From a virus (lineage: Duplodnaviria; Heunggongvirae; Uroviricota; Caudoviricetes): a DNA stretch of 42,124 nt. A program made the translations under genes and the position numbers. The stretch covers positions 1 through 42,124 of the IMG/VR virus record IMGVR_UViG_2909282993_000003. The stretch is one strand, 5' to 3'. The notes below the pieces were generated by a model. The model ran no database searches. It saw only the letters and a list, made by a program, of their open reading frames with translations, and had not been told where the DNA came from. This document shows positions 14,844 through 27,772 of the stretch, one piece after another; positions within the stretch are counted from its first letter, which is position 1; the number at the start of each line of letters is the position of its first letter.

Positions 14844-15529
14844 ATAACCAGTATTTACAGTTTGTGCGTGAGCAGCTCATTATCGCCACCGCTGATTTGA
14901 GTGGGGCAACAAAAGGTCAGCTTGAAGCCTGGCAAGAGAATGCCATGTTCGATACAGGGCGTTACAGGCGTAAAAAAATCCGGTACCGCGATGAAGTGAC
15001 TGGAAAAATGATAACGCGGGATAATCCACCAATCCCGGGAAAGCAATCGCTGGCGAAGGGGATGTCAATTCCTCTGGTCAGTCCGGTTGAGTTTTCGACA
15101 TCATCGTGGCGGCGGGCGGTTCTGTCTCTTGAAGAACATCATAAAGCCTGGTTGTTGTGGTGTTACAGCGGGAGTATTTGTTGGGAATATCAGATCGCGA
15201 TAACACAGTGGGCGTGGAATGAATTTAATACTCAATCCGGTACCAGAAAAATTGCAGGGAAAACGCAGGAACGCCTGAAAAAATTAATCTGGCTGGCGGC
15301 GCAGGAAGTAAAAGCAGAACTTTTTGGTGGGGAAGGTTATGAATACCAGGAGCTGGCATTACTGGCGGGAGTGACAACTAAAAACTGGTCCAAAACATTT
15401 ACTCGTCACTGGGTTGCAATGAAACACATTTTTCACCGACTGGATAGTGAGGCTTTATTGTTTGTAATGAGAACACGTTCAAAACAAAAGGCGGCATTTT
15501 CAAAGCAAAGTGTTGCAAAAGCAGATTGA
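14840..15529 (+). CDS. Late-gene antiterminator Q-like protein
   Basis: ORF overlapping the rusA stop (ATGA); sits immediately upstream of a sigma70-like promoter and a strong intrinsic terminator, the Q-PR'-tR' arrangement; consistent in size with Qin-type Q homologs. Confidence 0.65.
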   Translation: MNNQYLQFVREQLIIATADLSGATKGQLEAWQENAMFDTGRYRRKKIRYRDEVTGKMITRDNPPIPGKQSLAKGMSIPLVSPVEFSTSSWRRAVLSLEEHHKAWLLWCYSGSICWEYQIAITQWAWNEFNTQSGTRKIAGKTQERLKKLIWLAAQEVKAELFGGEGYEYQELALLAGVTTKNWSKTFTRHWVAMKHIFHRLDSEALLFVMRTRSKQKAAFSKQSVAKAD

Positions 15530-15541
15530 AAGGCATATATT
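15513..15541 (+). promoter_or_regulatory. Candidate late promoter PR' (TTGCAA-17 nt-TATATT)
   Basis: Near-consensus -35 and -10 hexamers with a 17-nt spacer overlapping the 3' end of Q, followed about 55 nt later by an intrinsic terminator. Confidence 0.45.
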
Positions 15542-15594
15542 TCATGCAAATCTGATATTTTGCCGATTTTGTACGTGATGGCAAAAGCAAACAA

Positions 15595-15619
15595 AACCCG
15601 CCCACAAGCGGGTTTTTTT
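15595..15619 (+). terminator. Rho-independent terminator (tR'-like) downstream of the late promoter
   Basis: CCCGCCC-ACAA-GCGGG stem followed by a run of seven T. Confidence 0.6.
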
Positions 15620-15739
15620 GTGCCACTTATCTCGGATAGACATGGTGAATGCGCTGGTGGAGGAAGTAAGGGTAATTTTTAACCAGGTAATTCTTGAATG
15701 CTTGCAACATTGATTTCGTAACGTTATTATCCTGCGCCC

Positions 15740-15815
15740 GGCCCTTTAGCTCAGTGGTGAGAGCGAGCGACTCATAATCGCCAGGTCGCTGGTTCAAATC
15801 CAGCAAGGGCCACCA
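15740..15815 (+). tRNA. tRNA with CAU anticodon (Ile2/ileX-like or Met)
   Basis: 76-nt cloverleaf folded by hand: acceptor GGCCCTT/AAGGGCC, D arm GCTC/GAGC, anticodon loop CTCATAA, T loop TTCAAAT, 3' CCA encoded; closely resembles recalled host ileX. Confidence 0.85.
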
Positions 15816-15816
15816 A

Positions 15817-15893
15817 CCGCCACTGGCTCATCAGGAAAGAGCGTCAACCCTTTAAGTTGAGTGTGCGAGGTTCGAGTCCCCGGTGGCGGTCCA
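15817..15893 (+). tRNA. tRNA-like gene, anticodon ambiguous (loop CCTTTAA; reads UUU with a non-canonical C33); possibly degenerate
   Basis: Acceptor CCGCCAC/GTGGCGG, D arm GCTC/GAGC, T loop TTCGAGT, CCA encoded; T stem has one mismatch; anticodon loop lacks the conserved U33. Confidence 0.5.
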
Positions 15894-15895
15894 GT

Positions 15896-15971
<76 letters not shown>

Positions 15972-15974
15972 TAT

Positions 15975-16049
<75 letters not shown>

Positions 16050-16108
16050 GTCAGAGTCTTTCAGTCTGCGATGATGGGAAATCCCGGAGTGACTGAAAGA
16101 CGTTTAAG

Positions 16109-16181
16109 TTATGAATGATCGCCTTTTTTTGCAAAATTGCTGTGCAGAAATACTAACCTTCGGGCAGGCGATCATTCATAA
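16109..16181. repeat. Perfect 15-bp inverted repeat (TTATGAATGATCGCC / GGCGATCATTCATAA) with 43-nt spacer in the tRNA-holin intergenic region
   Basis: Read directly; preceded by a second hairpin (11-bp stems at 16056-16066 and 16091-16101) and followed by a terminator-like GC stem plus T-run at about 16256-16282. Confidence 0.6.
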
Positions 16182-16341
16182 GCACTCTGCTTTTATTCCG
16201 ATTAACTGTGGGTGGTTTGTTGGATAGAGTGCTTTCCTTACTGTATATATCGTTTCGCCCGCTTTTGCGGGCTTTTCTTTTCAAATCCCTTTCATTTCTC
16301 AGTGTAAAACTACGCCATCCGTTATTTGCGGAGGTGAGGCT

Positions 16342-16557
16342 ATGAAATCCATGGACAAAATTTCAACGGGCATTGCCTATGGCACCTCCGCAGGCAGTGC
16401 TGGCTACTGGTTTTTACAGTGGCTTGATCAGGTCAGTCCGTCACAGTGGGCTGCGATTGGTGTACTGGGGAGTCTGATTCTGGGCTTCCTGACTTATCTG
16501 ACAAATCTGTACTTCAAAATCAGAGAAGACAAGCGTAAGGCTGCACGGGGAGAGTAA
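16342..16557 (+). CDS. Class II holin / pinholin (phage 21 S-like) with dual-start motif
   Basis: 71-aa product [30 protein letters not shown]... with two TM segments; Met1 and Met4 form the dual-start (antiholin/holin) arrangement known for S21. Confidence 0.9.
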
Positions 16558-16561
16558 TTCA

Positions 16562-16906
16562 ATGATTCAAAACTATGAACTGATTGTGAAAGGGATCCGC
16601 AATTTTGAGAATAAAGTTACGGTAACTTTAGCGTTACGGGACAAAAAACGCTTTGACGGTGAAATTTTTGACCTGGACATCTCGCTGGACCGTGTTGAAG
16701 GTGCCGCGCTGGAGTTTTATGAGGCAGCAGCCAGAAGGAGCATCAGACAGGTCTTCCTGGATGTTGCTGCCGGGTTATGTGAAGGGGATGAGCTGTCGCC
16801 GGAAAAGCGCCCCATAATTTTAGAGGCGCAGAATGTGTGGATAACCTACAAAGGAAAGCTACCGGGAAGAATTACTGGTTCTCTGAAGACTCCGCCGAAA
16901 TGGTAA
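16562..16906 (+). CDS. YdfR-like protein between holin and endolysin
   Basis: 114-aa ORF starting 5 nt after the holin stop (translational coupling); the position matches a conserved unknown-function gene I recall between S and R in Qin-type lysis cassettes. Confidence 0.55.
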   Translation: MIQNYELIVKGIRNFENKVTVTLALRDKKRFDGEIFDLDISLDRVEGAALEFYEAAARRSIRQVFLDVAAGLCEGDELSPEKRPIILEAQNVWITYKGKLPGRITGSLKTPPKW

Positions 16907-17249
16907 TTTCACCAGCATATTTTTCTTCCAGTAATACCGCCAGCCACTTGAAAGAATTTTGTTGTTGCTGGGACCATTTGGGGTTGAGTGATTCAAGCTG
17001 GAGCGATGCCAGTGTTGGTTGCATTTGTTCCTTGGGAATTGAGAATGCCAGATATGAAAATGCGACAGTAAGGGCATTTACATCATCCCGAAGCTTGGAA
17101 ATGCAGTCGAGCAACTCCTGTAGAGAAATGGTGCTATTGTCCATAAACAATCCTCTCTATTGTATTTAACTATTCCTTGCCTGATTCAACAGGCCGGGAC
17201 AGATAAACATATCCAGGGTTCAGAAACCGATAAATCCTGATAAATATCC

Positions 17250-17783
17250 ATGAACGTAAAAATCAGATACGGCCTGTCGGCTGCCGTTCTGGCACTGATT
17301 GCCGTCGGTGCGCCTGCGCCTGATATTCTCGACCAGTTTCTGAATGAAAAAGAAGGTAACCACACAACGGCATACCGCGATGGTTCCGGTATATGGACCA
17401 TCTGTCGTGGTGCCACAATGGTGGATGGTAAGCCCGTCATACCGGGAATGAAGCTGTCGAAGGAAGAATGCGACCAGGTTAACGCTATTGAACGTGATAA
17501 GGCGCTGGCATGGGTGGAGCGCAATATTAAAGTACCACTGACCGAACCACAGAAAGCGGGTATAGCGTCATTTTGTCCCTATAACATTGGCCCCGGTAAG
17601 TGTTTCCCGTCGACGTTTTATAAGCGGCTGAATGCCGGTGATCGTAAGGGTGCATGCGAGGCGATTCGCTGGTGGATAAAAGATGGTGGGCGCGATTGCC
17701 GCATACGTTCAAATAACTGCTATGGACAGGTTATTCGCCGTGACCAGGAAGCGGCACTGGTGTGCTGGGGTATCGACAGCTAG
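17250..17783 (+). CDS. SAR-endolysin (T4-lysozyme-like muramidase, phage 21 R-like)
   Basis: 177-aa product with N-terminal weakly hydrophobic Gly/Ala-rich signal-anchor-release segment (GLSAAVLALIAVGAPAP) followed by the E..D..T catalytic region typical of lysozyme R21. Confidence 0.9.
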   Translation: MNVKIRYGLSAAVLALIAVGAPAPDILDQFLNEKEGNHTTAYRDGSGIWTICRGATMVDGKPVIPGMKLSKEECDQVNAIERDKALAWVERNIKVPLTEPQKAGIASFCPYNIGPGKCFPSTFYKRLNAGDRKGACEAIRWWIKDGGRDCRIRSNNCYGQVIRRDQEAALVCWGIDS

Positions 17784-18485
17784 CAGAATATTTTGCTGAA
17801 AAATGGCGTGTGCTCCCGCGAGCGGATAACACGAAATCCTGCAAACTGGCAAAAGGTAAGTGAATAAAAGTAAAACCCCGGCTGGGGGAACAGTCCGGGG
17901 TTGCATTTTGACAAATCAGACATGGATATAATTCATGCAGGTAAAGGATAACAATAAAACCTTTCTGAGTATAGGGTGCAGTATGACACCTAAAGCAGCA
18001 AATATTGCCGGAATTATTCTTGCATTATCGGCAATGATCGGGGCAATTGGTTTTGCGGTTGCAGCGATAGCATATGTTTGTAGATAAGACAGAAAATACG
18101 GCGAATCTCTGCCTTATCCGGGCGGTGGCTTTTGCCATTAAGTGGGTGGCGGTTGGCATCGCCGTGTCTCCGATGCTGTATGGGCTGGCAAAATTGATTG
18201 TTGCTCTGAAATCGTGAGTGGTGATGGGTGTCATGAGGGACATGGCAACTGATGATAAAAGCAGAAACAACTTCGCAGGGTGCTGACGATGCCGCAAAAA
18301 TCATCGCGGTATGCCGGGGCATCAGACATATACTGACGCCAGTTGCATGGATTATTTGTACTGCACTGGTTGCATACACAACAATTTATTTAAACAGATG
18401 AGTGCTGATTTTATTCGGGCAACGGCCTTTGCAATTCGCCTTGTGGCGGTCGCTGTTCTGGTCTGGGCAATCCGTTGGTGGTGAT

Positions 18486-18953
18486 ATGAACCGTGTTCTG
18501 TATGTAGTGATTGCTATGCTGCTGGTGGCCTGTGTTGTGCTTAGTCTGGGGCTGAATCATTACCGTGATAACGCCATCGCCTACAAAGAACAGCGTGATA
18601 AAAAAGTCAGTGAGCTGAAGCAGGCGACCGCCACCATCGCTGACATGCAGCAGCGTCAGCGTGATGTTGCTGCGATCGATGCAAAATACACGAAGGAGTT
18701 AGCCGATGCGAAAACTGAAAATGAAACTCTGCGCGCTGATGTTGCCGCTGGTCGTAAGCGCCTGCGGGTCAATGCCAGTTGCTCCGCAGCCGTGCGTGAA
18801 GCCACCGGACCCACCAGCATGGATAATGCAACCAGCCCCCGACTGGCAGACACCGCTGAACGGGATTATTTCACCCTCAGAGAACGGTTGATGACGATGC
18901 AGAAGCAACTGGAAGGGGCGCAGGAATATATCCGCACCCAGCGCATTAAGTAG
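18486..18953 (+). CDS. Spanin inner-membrane subunit Rz (i-spanin)
   Basis: Start MNRVLYVVIAMLLVACVV (N-terminal TM) then coiled-coil-like sequence; contains the embedded Rz1 frame. Confidence 0.8.
   Translation: MNRVLYVVIAMLLVACVVLSLGLNHYRDNAIAYKEQRDKKVSELKQATATIADMQQRQRDVAAIDAKYTKELADAKTENETLRADVAAGRKRLRVNASCSAAVREATGPTSMDNATSPRLADTAERDYFTLRERLMTMQKQLEGAQEYIRTQRIK
18706..18891 (+). CDS. Spanin outer-membrane lipoprotein Rz1 (o-spanin), embedded in the +1 frame of Rz
   Basis: 61-aa ORF wholly inside Rz; lipobox VVSAC followed by a Pro-rich mature peptide, the hallmark of Rz1. Confidence 0.75.
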   Translation: MRKLKMKLCALMLPLVVSACGSMPVAPQPCVKPPDPPAWIMQPAPDWQTPLNGIISPSENG

Positions 18954-18974
18954 CTGGAGAAAAAACACGAATCT

Positions 18975-19337
18975 GTGGTTTTTACTGAGCGCGGTGTACA
19001 CGGTGGAACATATGGCGGGAAGTTTGTTGCTTATGATTATGCAGCATGGCTAAACCCCGGATTTAAATATGCAGCCTATAAAGTCCTGGATGACTACTTC
19101 ACCGGAGAACTTCAGCATCGCAACAGCTTAAGTGCGCAGCTCAATATGAAGTGTCATGAGTTTGATCAGAAAAAAGATATGGCGAGCTTCTGTGGACAAG
19201 GGCTGGCGGCATGGCGCTATACGAAGCCAGTGTTGGTCGCTGAGATTAACTCCCTGGCTAACCAGCTGCGGATAACGATCCCCGGGCTGTCCGGTATTTG
19301 CCGGTATGAAATTACCGGAAGGCGCGGTCGTTACTGA
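18975..19337 (+). CDS. Hypothetical protein (120 aa) downstream of Rz
   Basis: ORF with a GTG-type start; may be a KilA/antirepressor-like remnant but no secure match. Confidence 0.45.
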   Translation: MVFTERGVHGGTYGGKFVAYDYAAWLNPGFKYAAYKVLDDYFTGELQHRNSLSAQLNMKCHEFDQKKDMASFCGQGLAAWRYTKPVLVAEINSLANQLRITIPGLSGICRYEITGRRGRY

Positions 19338-19604
19338 GTAACAGCAGGCATTACAGCAGCCCTTCACTGAGGGGCTGCGATAATGTGAGGAATAAAAAAC
19401 CGGCAGGGGAAATCCATTGAAGATTTGCCGGTGGCAAAAGATGGCCATGCTTTTAACCTTAGTAGCAGAGTTACGGAGTTCAACAACGACCGTCGCCGTT
19501 ATCTTGCTGAAAGGCGTTTCAATGATTTTCATCAATTTATTCATCAGCAATGGTGATAATCACTCTCATTTTGGCGGGTCCTTCCGGTGGGGTGGCCTGC
19601 CACG

Positions 19605-19616
19605 GGGCGGGAGCGT
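19605..19616. other. Candidate cosN cohesive-end site (GGGCGGGAGCGT) about 190 bp upstream of the small terminase
   Basis: Local sequence ACGGGGCGGGAGCGTCGCGG parallels the recalled lambda left end (GGGCGGCGACCTCGCGG) in sequence and in distance to the Nu1-like gene; an 11-bp perfect inverted repeat at 19660-19687 lies in the cosB-equivalent interval. Confidence 0.4.
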
Positions 19617-19790
19617 CGCGGAAAAAGGCTAGTTTTTGAAATTTCATTCGTCATCACCACCACTGTAATAGATTGATATTACAGTGGTTTTATTTTTATG
19701 GTGTCGATTTTGATTGTTTTTTGTTCATCACTAACACCGTTTGCCTAAAGTTGTTCGCAAGATGCATGTTTAAAACATTCTGGAGCGGGT

Positions 19791-20285
19791 ATGGATCGAG
19801 AGTTAAAAAATCTGACGCTGAATATCAGTCAACTGGCGGCACTGTCAGGTGTACATCGCCAGACTGCTGCGGCAAGGCTGCAAAATCTACCCGTTGCAGG
19901 GGGGCATGAAAGCAACCTCAAGCTTTATCGGGTGGTTGATATTGTGTCGGCATTTCTGGCATTGCCACCGCCGGTTGCAGAAGGCGAAATGGACGCGCAT
20001 GAGCGCAAAGCCTGGTATCAGTCTGAACGTGAGCGTCTTAAGTTCGAACAGGAAACGGCACAACTCATTCCGGCCAGTGATGTCAGACGGGAGTTTGCCA
20101 TCTGGGCAAAAGCGGTCGTGCAGGTGCTGGAGACATTACCGGATATTCTGGAACGTGACTGCGGTCTGCAGCCTGCCGCTGTGAGCCGTGTTCAGTCCAT
20201 TATTGATGATCTGCGCGATCAGATAGCCCTGCGGGTGACTGAAGCAGGTGCGGATGATGAGGAGGAATTACAGCAGGAGGAGTAA
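19791..20285 (+). CDS. Terminase small subunit (Nu1-like, N-terminal HTH)
   Basis: 164-aa ORF immediately upstream of, and coupled to, the large terminase gene; N-terminal HTH-like segment ISQLAALSGVHRQTAAARL; acidic C-terminus. Confidence 0.75.
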   Translation: MDRELKNLTLNISQLAALSGVHRQTAAARLQNLPVAGGHESNLKLYRVVDIVSAFLALPPPVAEGEMDAHERKAWYQSERERLKFEQETAQLIPASDVRREFAIWAKAVVQVLETLPDILERDCGLQPAAVSRVQSIIDDLRDQIALRVTEAGADDEEELQQEE

Positions 20286-27374: not shown

Positions 27375-27772
27375 ACCGACATACACAAATCCGCCAGGTC
27401 GTACTGGCACGCCTTCGGGAACAGTGTGGAGACAGCGCCACGTTTTTTGACGGACTTCCGGCATTTGTTGATGCGCAGGAACTGCCTGCCGTGGCGGTGT
27501 GGCTGAGTGATGCTCAGTACACCGGAAAAATGACGGATGAAGATGACTGGCAGGCTGTTCTGCATATTGCTGTCTTCATCCGGGCACAGGCACCGGATTC
27601 AGAGCTGGATATGTGGATGGAGAGCACCATTTTCCCGGCACTGAATGATGTACCGGCACTTTCCGGACTCATCGACACCCTGATCCCACTCGGTTTTAAC
27701 TATCAACGTGATAATGAGATGGCCACCTGGGCGATGGCGGAAATCACGTACCAGATCACGTACACGAATTAA
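27371..27772 (+). CDS. Tail terminator protein U-like
   Basis: Product contains ATFFDG, PAVAV and ...DSELDMWMES..., recognisably similar to recalled lambda gpU; ATGA overlap with Z. Confidence 0.8.
   Translation: MNRHTQIRQVVLARLREQCGDSATFFDGLPAFVDAQELPAVAVWLSDAQYTGKMTDEDDWQAVLHIAVFIRAQAPDSELDMWMESTIFPALNDVPALSGLIDTLIPLGFNYQRDNEMATWAMAEITYQITYTN

Follow-up and report, generated by a model that had tools for sequence, protein, structure and literature searches.

Four small membrane-protein genes behind a terminator-like hairpin between the endolysin and spanin genes of a lambdoid Escherichia coli prophage: a probable mobile late-operon cassette

The lysis cassettes of lambdoid phages, with their holin, endolysin and spanin genes, are among the best-studied gene sets in biology. 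Holins and antiholins, such as the S21 pinholin, lambda S105/S107 and P1 LydB, are small membrane proteins encoded beside the endolysin. The Mu gp25 releasin (DUF2730) is a non-holin protein with a single transmembrane domain (TMD), which controls the release of the signal-arrest-release (SAR) endolysin of its lysis cassette; it has 99 amino acids (aa), including a 73-aa cytoplasmic domain (PMC9239132). Morons (HK97 gene 15, lambda lom and bor) are optional genes between essential late genes, and they are defined by their own promoter, a downstream terminator, expression from the repressed prophage and a deviant guanine-plus-cytosine (GC) content; HK97 gp15, encoded in the tail operon, is a small inner-membrane protein (PMC3594210). 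Here, we describe the 702-bp gap between the endolysin gene R and the i-spanin gene Rz in the late region of a lambdoid E. coli prophage. The gap occupies positions 17784-18485 of the window, by which we mean the whole stretch of DNA that was analysed (42,124 nucleotides (nt), IMG/VR record IMGVR_UViG_2909282993_000003). It contains four small open reading frames (ORFs), A to D, which are very probably genuine membrane-protein genes of the late operon that together form a mobile cassette.

The four ORFs are arranged in tandem on the plus strand and are tightly packed. Annotations cited below are those of the Prokaryotic Genome Annotation Pipeline (PGAP).
17935-18087, plus strand: ORF A, 50 aa, or 34 aa from the internal ATG at 17983 (ORF list; PGAP call in a sister genome)
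18074-18217, plus strand: ORF B, 47 aa, core IRAVAFAIKWVAVGIAVSPMLYGLAKLIVALKS (PGAP WP_000496062)
18252-18401, plus strand: ORF C, 49 aa (ORF list; without PGAP annotation)
18398-18484, plus strand: ORF D, 28 aa, MSADFIRATAFAIRLVAVAVLVWAIRWW (PGAP WP_085950722)
An earlier note on this DNA, made by a model from the letters alone, had translated three short plus-strand ORFs in the gap. All three exist at the positions it gave, namely 17983-18087 (34 aa), 18074-18217 (47 aa rather than the 48 claimed) and 18252-18401 (49 aa); it had overlooked ORF D and the longer form of A.

The packing is that of translationally coupled genes, with D coupled to Rz: A and B overlap by 14 nt, C and D share an ATGA, and the stop codon of D ends 1 nt 5' of the Rz ATG at 18486, giving the junction TGAtATG. 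ORF A has a polar N-terminus, MQVKDNNKTFLSIGCS, and ORF C has a polar head, MIKAETTSQGADDAAK, followed by a basic stretch (CRGIRH); in both proteins the hydrophobic core spans residues 27-45. Homologues of A from E. coli and Citrobacter retain NKTFL.IGG, which favours the upstream start at 17935, and a GGAT/GGAG sequence is located 8-12 nt 5' of that ATG. PGAP calls B and D in most genomes, the 50-aa form of A in a sister genome and C in none. The start sites that gene callers assign to these small ORFs are inconsistent, so the lengths given in databases (38-83 aa) are unreliable.

That these ORFs are genes is supported by their substitution patterns. We collected 130 loci encoding relatives of C and of B/D from IMG/VR and annotated genomes, and computed the ratio of non-synonymous to synonymous differences per site (pN/pS) from Nei-Gojobori counts on the distinct DNA versions, comparing the own frame of each ORF with the two other plus-strand frames. 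Across all four ORFs the own frame gave 0.16-0.37, against 0.57-6.3 in the other frames. The value for A was 0.16 for the 34-aa core and 0.28 for the 50-aa form; the core of B gave 0.23 (0.57 and 6.3 in the other frames), C gave 0.19 (1.5 and 1.7; 24 distinct DNA sequences) and D gave 0.37 (1.05 and 1.65). Judged by this signature, all four are real genes under purifying selection in their own frame. The window also has long minus-strand ORFs, of 121 aa and 90 aa, which relatives with a 92-94% identical B-C-D do not preserve.

Conservation, on which the earlier note had let its small ORFs stand or fall, holds for each of them. In addition to the homologues of A already mentioned, the databases contain 88 homologues of B and 29 of C, the latter from E. 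coli and Salmonella and extending down to ~65% identity. The C family is narrow, with 8 representatives among 1.8 billion proteins in an exhaustive profile search. B matches phrog_1115, phrog_3246 and phrog_4493 at E=4e-19, D matches the same three PHROGs at E=2.4e-6, and A matches phrog_12997 over residues 6-48 at E=5.4e-7; all of these carry the label 'unknown function'. A PHROG search with C returned no match, and scans of all the small proteins against Pfam, NCBIfam and PADLOC were likewise empty. B and D are paralogues, which can be aligned with each other, share the motif IRA.AFAI[KR].VAV and fall into the same PHROGs, D being the shorter. A relationship of C with B/D was rejected, as profile-profile comparison gave it a probability of 7.6%, and we treat them as separate families. 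K-12 YmfR, from the e14 prophage, was considered as a member of the C family and proved to be unrelated once translated.

A hydrophobic core of at least 19 residues (Kyte-Doolittle means 1.9-2.5) is present in each of the four proteins and is followed by a C-terminal flank of 4-16 residues that includes 1-2 basic residues. AlphaFold2, run with family alignments, models B as one long helix covering residues 2-46 (predicted local distance difference test score (pLDDT) 84.9) and C as one long helix covering residues 8-48 (pLDDT 81). The idea that the gap encodes small membrane peptides, each with a hydrophobic helix, has therefore held up well: the ORFs are conserved and under purifying selection, their hydrophobic cores are long, and B and C are modelled as single helices.

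Two non-coding features occupy the gap between R and ORF A.
about 17784-17871, plus strand: conserved non-coding block of ~90 nt (AGCAGAATATTTTGCTGAAAAATG...GGATAACACGAAATCCTG...TAAGTGAATAAAAGT), directly after the R stop codon, with 33 distinct versions across the loci
17872-17909, plus strand: intrinsic-terminator-like hairpin in the 5' leader of the array (terminator scan and folding)
A GC hairpin with a T-run had been noticed near 17885, and both the terminator scan and folding confirm it. It consists of an A-tract, a stem in which CCCCGGCTG (17876-17884) pairs with CAGTCCGGGG (17891-17900), and a T-rich tail, TTGCATTTT. RNAalifold, applied to 17 distinct versions of the hairpin, found 14 pairs, 5 of them with compensatory double changes. 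The element is thus a GC-rich stem-loop followed by a U-run, as in an intrinsic terminator, and its stem has covariation support. A homologous GC hairpin, with the consensus AAAgCCCCGGCTGnTGnAACAGTCGGGGCTTT, lies 35-50 nt before the array in all six genomic contexts. In the window the U-run is interrupted (UUGCAUUUU), which leaves the efficiency of termination uncertain.

Two of the loci contain more than one copy of the hairpin. In L038 (2504, 2735) and L047 (652, 900), hairpin-plus-ORF units are repeated in tandem, and in L047 one A-type gene stands between two hairpins at the prophage end, beside the host cytochrome b561 and ZinT genes. Such tandem or bracketed copies suggest that the mobile unit is the hairpin plus an ORF.

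The earlier note had also pointed to TTGACA- and TATAAT-like hexamers in this leader. Both are present, at 17908-17913 and 17927-17932, but a reading as a promoter is not supported: their spacing is 13 nt, and a sigma-70 promoter scan of both strands over 17200-19100 found none, with the proviso that a consensus scan may miss weak or non-sigma-70 promoters. The same type of scan found no plus-strand promoter between the hairpin and the array in three relatives. At the TATAAT position, relatives read GGAGAT, 8-9 nt 5' of the first ATG; since TATAAT aligns with this Shine-Dalgarno sequence, the ribosome-binding region of ORF A is the better reading. Shine-Dalgarno-like GGAG/GGGAG sequences are found 5' of the first ORF in the arrays.

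The conserved block ends in stop codons in all three frames (TAAGTGAATAA), and its core is short, hypervariable and partly palindromic. It follows R in R21-type cassettes, including that of phage 933W (locus L132, 2584-2680), and is also found at the 3' end of M15- and GH108-type cassettes; further examples occur in L008 (1632-1720), L023, L061 and others. The block has no Rfam match, its small hairpins are invariant and without covariation in RNAalifold, and no match to it was found in the literature. It may mark a recombination boundary, bind a protein or act as an RNA of the 3' untranslated region.

The same small proteins are combined differently from one prophage to the next. The 130 loci draw on a pool of at least seven small single-helix families (A, B/D, C, E (phrog_4906), F (phrog_6632) and G), plus a 60-aa lipoprotein (phrog_7528), in the following arrangements.
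R-B-E-Rz (O157:H7 type): 40 loci
R-A-B-C-D-Rz (the window's type): 23 loci
R-F2-E-B-D-Rz: 10 loci
M15 peptidase-C-D-lipoprotein: 7 loci
GH108-B-E-lipoprotein: 6 loci
Ig-like-B-C-D-lipoprotein: 4 loci
237-aa gene-[G]-C-[F-F]-115-aa gene, near Baseplate_J: 12 loci
tail-fibre-assembly-C-G-DUF1353: 2 loci
Rarer combinations are also present. In most cases the array lies between an endolysin gene and either Rz or the small lipoprotein gene, and the endolysins concerned belong to three unrelated families (GH24 SAR lysozyme, Peptidase_M15_4 and GH108). Near-identical copies of the small proteins are found beside non-homologous holins and endolysins, and also in tail and baseplate operons. Some of the small proteins are chimeric, for example one with a C head and a B helix (P0058) and one with an E head and a C body (P0021; see also P0062), which points to recombination inside these mini-genes.

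Of 5426 complete E. coli genomes, 1883 match the interval at least in part. Stx2a phages have a single F-type ORF, which ends 1 nt before Rz, and in phage 933W a small E-type membrane ORF (..SDKLITLVKSLCVLVGISFLVMLVAIFFSTAWRVLTLSGLVG), which lacks annotation, separates ant from Rz (L132 3421-3570, record positions 27420-27569). The K-12 Qin prophage has no array, and there R overlaps Rz. In the M15 and GH108 cassettes, the 60-aa lipoprotein ends the array at the position of Rz, with the same junction sequence (..CGTTGGTGGTGAtATGAnCCGT). This lipoprotein has the lipobox LLVGC and three cysteines in a mature part of 30 aa (L008 1465-1620, L020/L021 3235-3417, L029 3235-3417), and no Rz-like ORF was seen within the fetched flanks of the M15/GH108 loci.

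The window comprises the late region of a lambdoid E. coli prophage, and the gap is bordered by the following genes.
17250-17783, plus strand: SAR-type lysozyme R, 177 aa, rrrQ-like, the 5' border of the gap (ORF list; PGAP 'lysozyme rrrQ' in a 100%-identical genome)
18486-18953, plus strand: i-spanin Rz, the 3' border of the gap (PGAP 'lysis protein', with matching coordinates)
18706-18891, plus strand: o-spanin Rz1, embedded in Rz, with lipobox VVSAC (ORF list)
An 861-bp segment around the gap recurs with 100% identity in the chromosomal prophages of ~30 complete E. coli genomes, including several from strains of serotype O169:H41 or O27:H7. According to PGAP in one of these genomes, the plus-strand order is Q, four transfer RNAs (tRNAs), a class II (S21-type) holin, YdfR (DUF1327), lysozyme rrrQ, two tiny hypothetical proteins, Rz with embedded Rz1, a 120-aa ORF, and the small and large terminase; the pR'/tR' region lies between Q and the tRNAs. 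A tR'-like terminator is found at 15589, just 3' of Q, and it shares one strand with Q and all the late genes, which identifies a Q-dependent late operon of a lambdoid prophage. The GC content is 0.44-0.50 within the gap and 0.44-0.56 in its surroundings.

Some further features of this region were recorded. The four tRNA genes form a cluster at 15740-16046, between Q and the holin gene. A 92-aa ORF on the minus strand (16872-17150), between ydfR and R, runs in the opposite orientation inside the lysis cassette; it is PGAP-annotated and matches phrog_2411 ('unknown function') at E=2e-59. In an Rfam cmscan of 15500-19800 (E<=1) the gap was empty, and apart from the four tRNAs the only matches were weak leader- and isrK-like ones near pR'; in the tR' area (15538-15622) there are weak, sub-threshold matches to isrK/isrJ and leader families.

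We propose that the gap serves the late (lysis) operon as a slot for accessory cargo and is filled by a horizontally shuffled cassette that would consist of a terminator-type hairpin and four genes for single-helix inner-membrane proteins of 28-50 aa. The four genes would be transcribed only when RNA polymerase modified by Q, coming from pR', reads through the hairpin, and A to D would accordingly be made at the same time as S, R and Rz, in the late phase of lytic growth. They would insert into the cytoplasmic membrane and act on a host component, be it the membrane, its energised state or a host membrane protein; the occurrence of the same proteins with any set of lysis partners argues for a host target rather than a specific phage partner. 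Their likeliest effect would be on when, or how efficiently, the membrane steps of lysis, for example holin triggering, take place. Holin triggering depends on the membrane potential, so a generic membrane-active peptide would suit any holin, and we prefer lysis tuning over other roles because the arrays are strongly concentrated between endolysin and spanin or lipoprotein genes. We regard a late cargo cassette of lysis-tuning membrane proteins as the best explanation as a whole, tentatively and at somewhat less than an even chance; that A to D tune lysis is possible, if rather doubtful.

Several observations weigh against this explanation. About 40% of the C-family loci lie outside lysis cassettes, in the 237-aa/115-aa slot near Baseplate_J or after tail-fibre-assembly genes, and for these a role as generic late-gene cargo fits equally well. 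The existence of array-free cassettes such as that of K-12 Qin means that the small ORFs are dispensable for the S-R-Rz layout and that any effect on lysis is non-essential. The proteins bear no likeness to holin, antiholin, releasin or spanin families in Pfam, NCBIfam or PADLOC, and the sole holin match, in PHROG, is non-significant (E=0.036). Finally, weak or non-sigma-70 promoters may have escaped the consensus scan.

The array could instead be moron-type cargo made in the lysogen, either protecting it (e.g. by superinfection exclusion at DNA entry, like HK97 gp15) or modulating a host membrane protein. In favour of this reading, close relatives differ in the presence and combination of the genes, and other accessory genes use the same slots: 933W has ant at the R-Rz position, and AntA/Rha-like genes occur in the slot between the 237-aa and 115-aa genes. 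The recurrence of the same proteins with different lysis modules and in tail operons likewise points to a host-directed function, and HK97 gp15 itself provides a precedent for a small inner-membrane moron protein encoded in a tail operon. We nevertheless consider this reading unlikely, while giving it real weight: no sigma-70 promoter precedes any array scanned, here or in three relatives, the terminator lies 5' rather than 3' of the genes and would block read-through in the lysogen, the GC content is like that of the surroundings, the last ORF is translationally coupled to Rz, and PADLOC gave no match. Another possibility is that the proteins are accessory factors of the outer-membrane step, acting with Rz/Rz1 or preparing the membrane for them, or for the lipoprotein that replaces Rz elsewhere. 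In essentially all gapped R21-type cassettes, including that of 933W (3' of ant), a distance of 1-8 nt separates the end of D, E or F from the start codon of Rz, and the M15/GH108 arrays end in the lipoprotein gene described above. A function of this kind is nonetheless improbable, as A to D are essentially without a periplasmic domain, R overlaps Rz in array-free cassettes, the last position can be taken by B or C, and arrays are found in baseplate operons too; the conserved ...RWW-TGA-t-ATG end may merely keep the ribosome-binding site of Rz.

In the window, the array comes directly after the SAR lysozyme gene R and shares its cassette with a class II holin of the S21 type. The small proteins might accordingly have the S21 pinholin or the SAR endolysin as their specific partner, either as antiholins or through a releasin-like control over the release of membrane-tethered R, for which Mu gp25 offers a model. 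The context data weaken this proposal to the point where we think it quite improbable: highly identical copies of B, C, D and E follow Peptidase_M15_4 and GH108 endolysins, in which inspection of the N-terminus by eye reveals no signal-anchor, and the holins that come with these endolysins are different. There is also no DUF2730 match, and the proteins, at 28-50 aa, are far from the size and domain content of the releasin. In size and hydropathy, which was computed here, they resemble Hok, TisB, Ibs and Ldr, and the earlier note had raised type I toxin-like peptides, which would act as addiction modules silenced by antisense RNA. This is very unlikely, since the scan of 17200-19100 found a promoter on neither strand, be it for the genes or for an antisense RNA, the gap has no Rfam antitoxin or small RNA (sRNA) match, and the genes are sense-oriented and coupled to their neighbours in the late operon, where they form tandem arrays of varying composition and not the isolated toxin/antisense pairs of such modules. 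As for the suggestion that the gap is a decayed gene, perhaps an antirepressor, or a non-coding spacer with chance ORFs, the premise that some relatives have an antirepressor gene between R and Rz is correct for phage 933W, and only two of the four ORFs are PGAP-annotated in most genomes. The suggestion itself is refuted: a six-frame Pfam scan of 17784-18486 is empty at E<=1, every ORF shows frame-specific purifying selection, the ORFs are intact in hundreds of loci, with intact homologues in E. coli, Salmonella and Citrobacter, and A, B and D belong to PHROG families. The ant gene of 933W is different cargo in the same slot and not the ancestor of the gap sequence.

The sole antirepressor-like remnant near the lysis genes lies 3' of Rz. 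It is a 120-aa ORF (18975-19337, plus strand), whose match to the phrog_129 profile (273 positions; Rha/KilA-type transcriptional regulator, anti-repressor-like) is confined to positions 69-175 and which, from this partial match, looks like a truncated regulator gene.

In most S21/R21-type cassettes of E. coli, including those of the medically important Shiga-toxin phages, the endolysin and spanin genes are separated by one to four additional conserved genes for small membrane proteins, which are often unannotated. If they tune the timing or efficiency of lysis, toxin release and phage burst in pathogens would be affected; if they are exclusion or anti-defence cargo, they would add a family of very small effectors. 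The terminator-led combinatorial arrays also illustrate concretely how tiny genes travel from one phage operon to another. We searched the literature by accession, by peptide and DNA string and by topic, and found no paper on these ORFs.

The proteins themselves are already known as PHROGs of 'unknown function' and partly as RefSeq hypothetical proteins. PHROGs 1115/3246/4493 (B, D), 12997 (A), 4906 (E) and 6632 (F) hold the same proteins, catalogued from other enterobacterial phages; the catalogue gives neither their context nor a link between the families, and C is in no PHROG. Like holins and antiholins, the products of A to D are small membrane proteins encoded beside the endolysin in a lysis cassette, which could affect lysis timing if they are expressed late, as we infer. 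They have no sequence relation to these families, the closest approach being that of A to phrog_526 at a non-significant E=0.036. Instead of a TMD followed by a charged hydrophilic C-terminal domain, they have a single core with a short C-terminal flank. Moreover, the window's cassette already has its own holin, and the same small proteins accompany unrelated holins. With the Mu gp25 releasin they share a single membrane-spanning segment and a place in a cassette with a SAR endolysin, but they have no Pfam match, are much shorter and also occur beside endolysins that lack a signal-anchor by eye. Two-component i-spanins combine an N-terminal TMD with a long periplasmic coiled coil; in A to D no soluble domain follows the helix, and a canonical Rz/Rz1 pair is present at 18486. 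Small size and one hydrophobic helix are also properties of the type I toxins (Hok/Gef, TisB, Ibs, Ldr, ShoB), for whose own promoter and antisense RNA gene no counterpart was found here; A to D are arranged as an operon and coupled within phage late genes. The Pas sRNAs of enteropathogenic and enterohaemorrhagic E. coli (EPEC/EHEC) prophages lie beside holin-lysozyme operons or in structural operons, and not between R and Rz.

Morons are a further point of comparison. The arrays are optional genes between essential late genes, in slots shared with cargo such as ant, and extra DNA is present at the same position in only some close relatives: K-12 Qin has none, and others have different arrays or ant. 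Three of the four moron features tested are lacking. An own promoter was found neither here nor in three relatives by a consensus scan from which weak promoters may escape; there is no own downstream terminator, as the hairpin is upstream and D runs into Rz, with hairpins on both sides of a unit only in L047 and L038; and the GC content is not deviant. A broader and rather unlikely possibility is that the arrays represent an unrecognised class of phage 'micro-membrane-protein cassettes'. This class would comprise at least seven families of 28-65 aa single-helix proteins, shuffled even within ORFs, led by a terminator and placed in late-operon slots of temperate enterobacterial phages, where they might serve a general host-directed late function, e.g. 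as a lysis-timing layer, in the outer-membrane step or as a counter to membrane-acting defences. Set beside the known systems, A to D are accessory small membrane proteins of a phage late operon with an unusual terminator-led, combinatorial organization.

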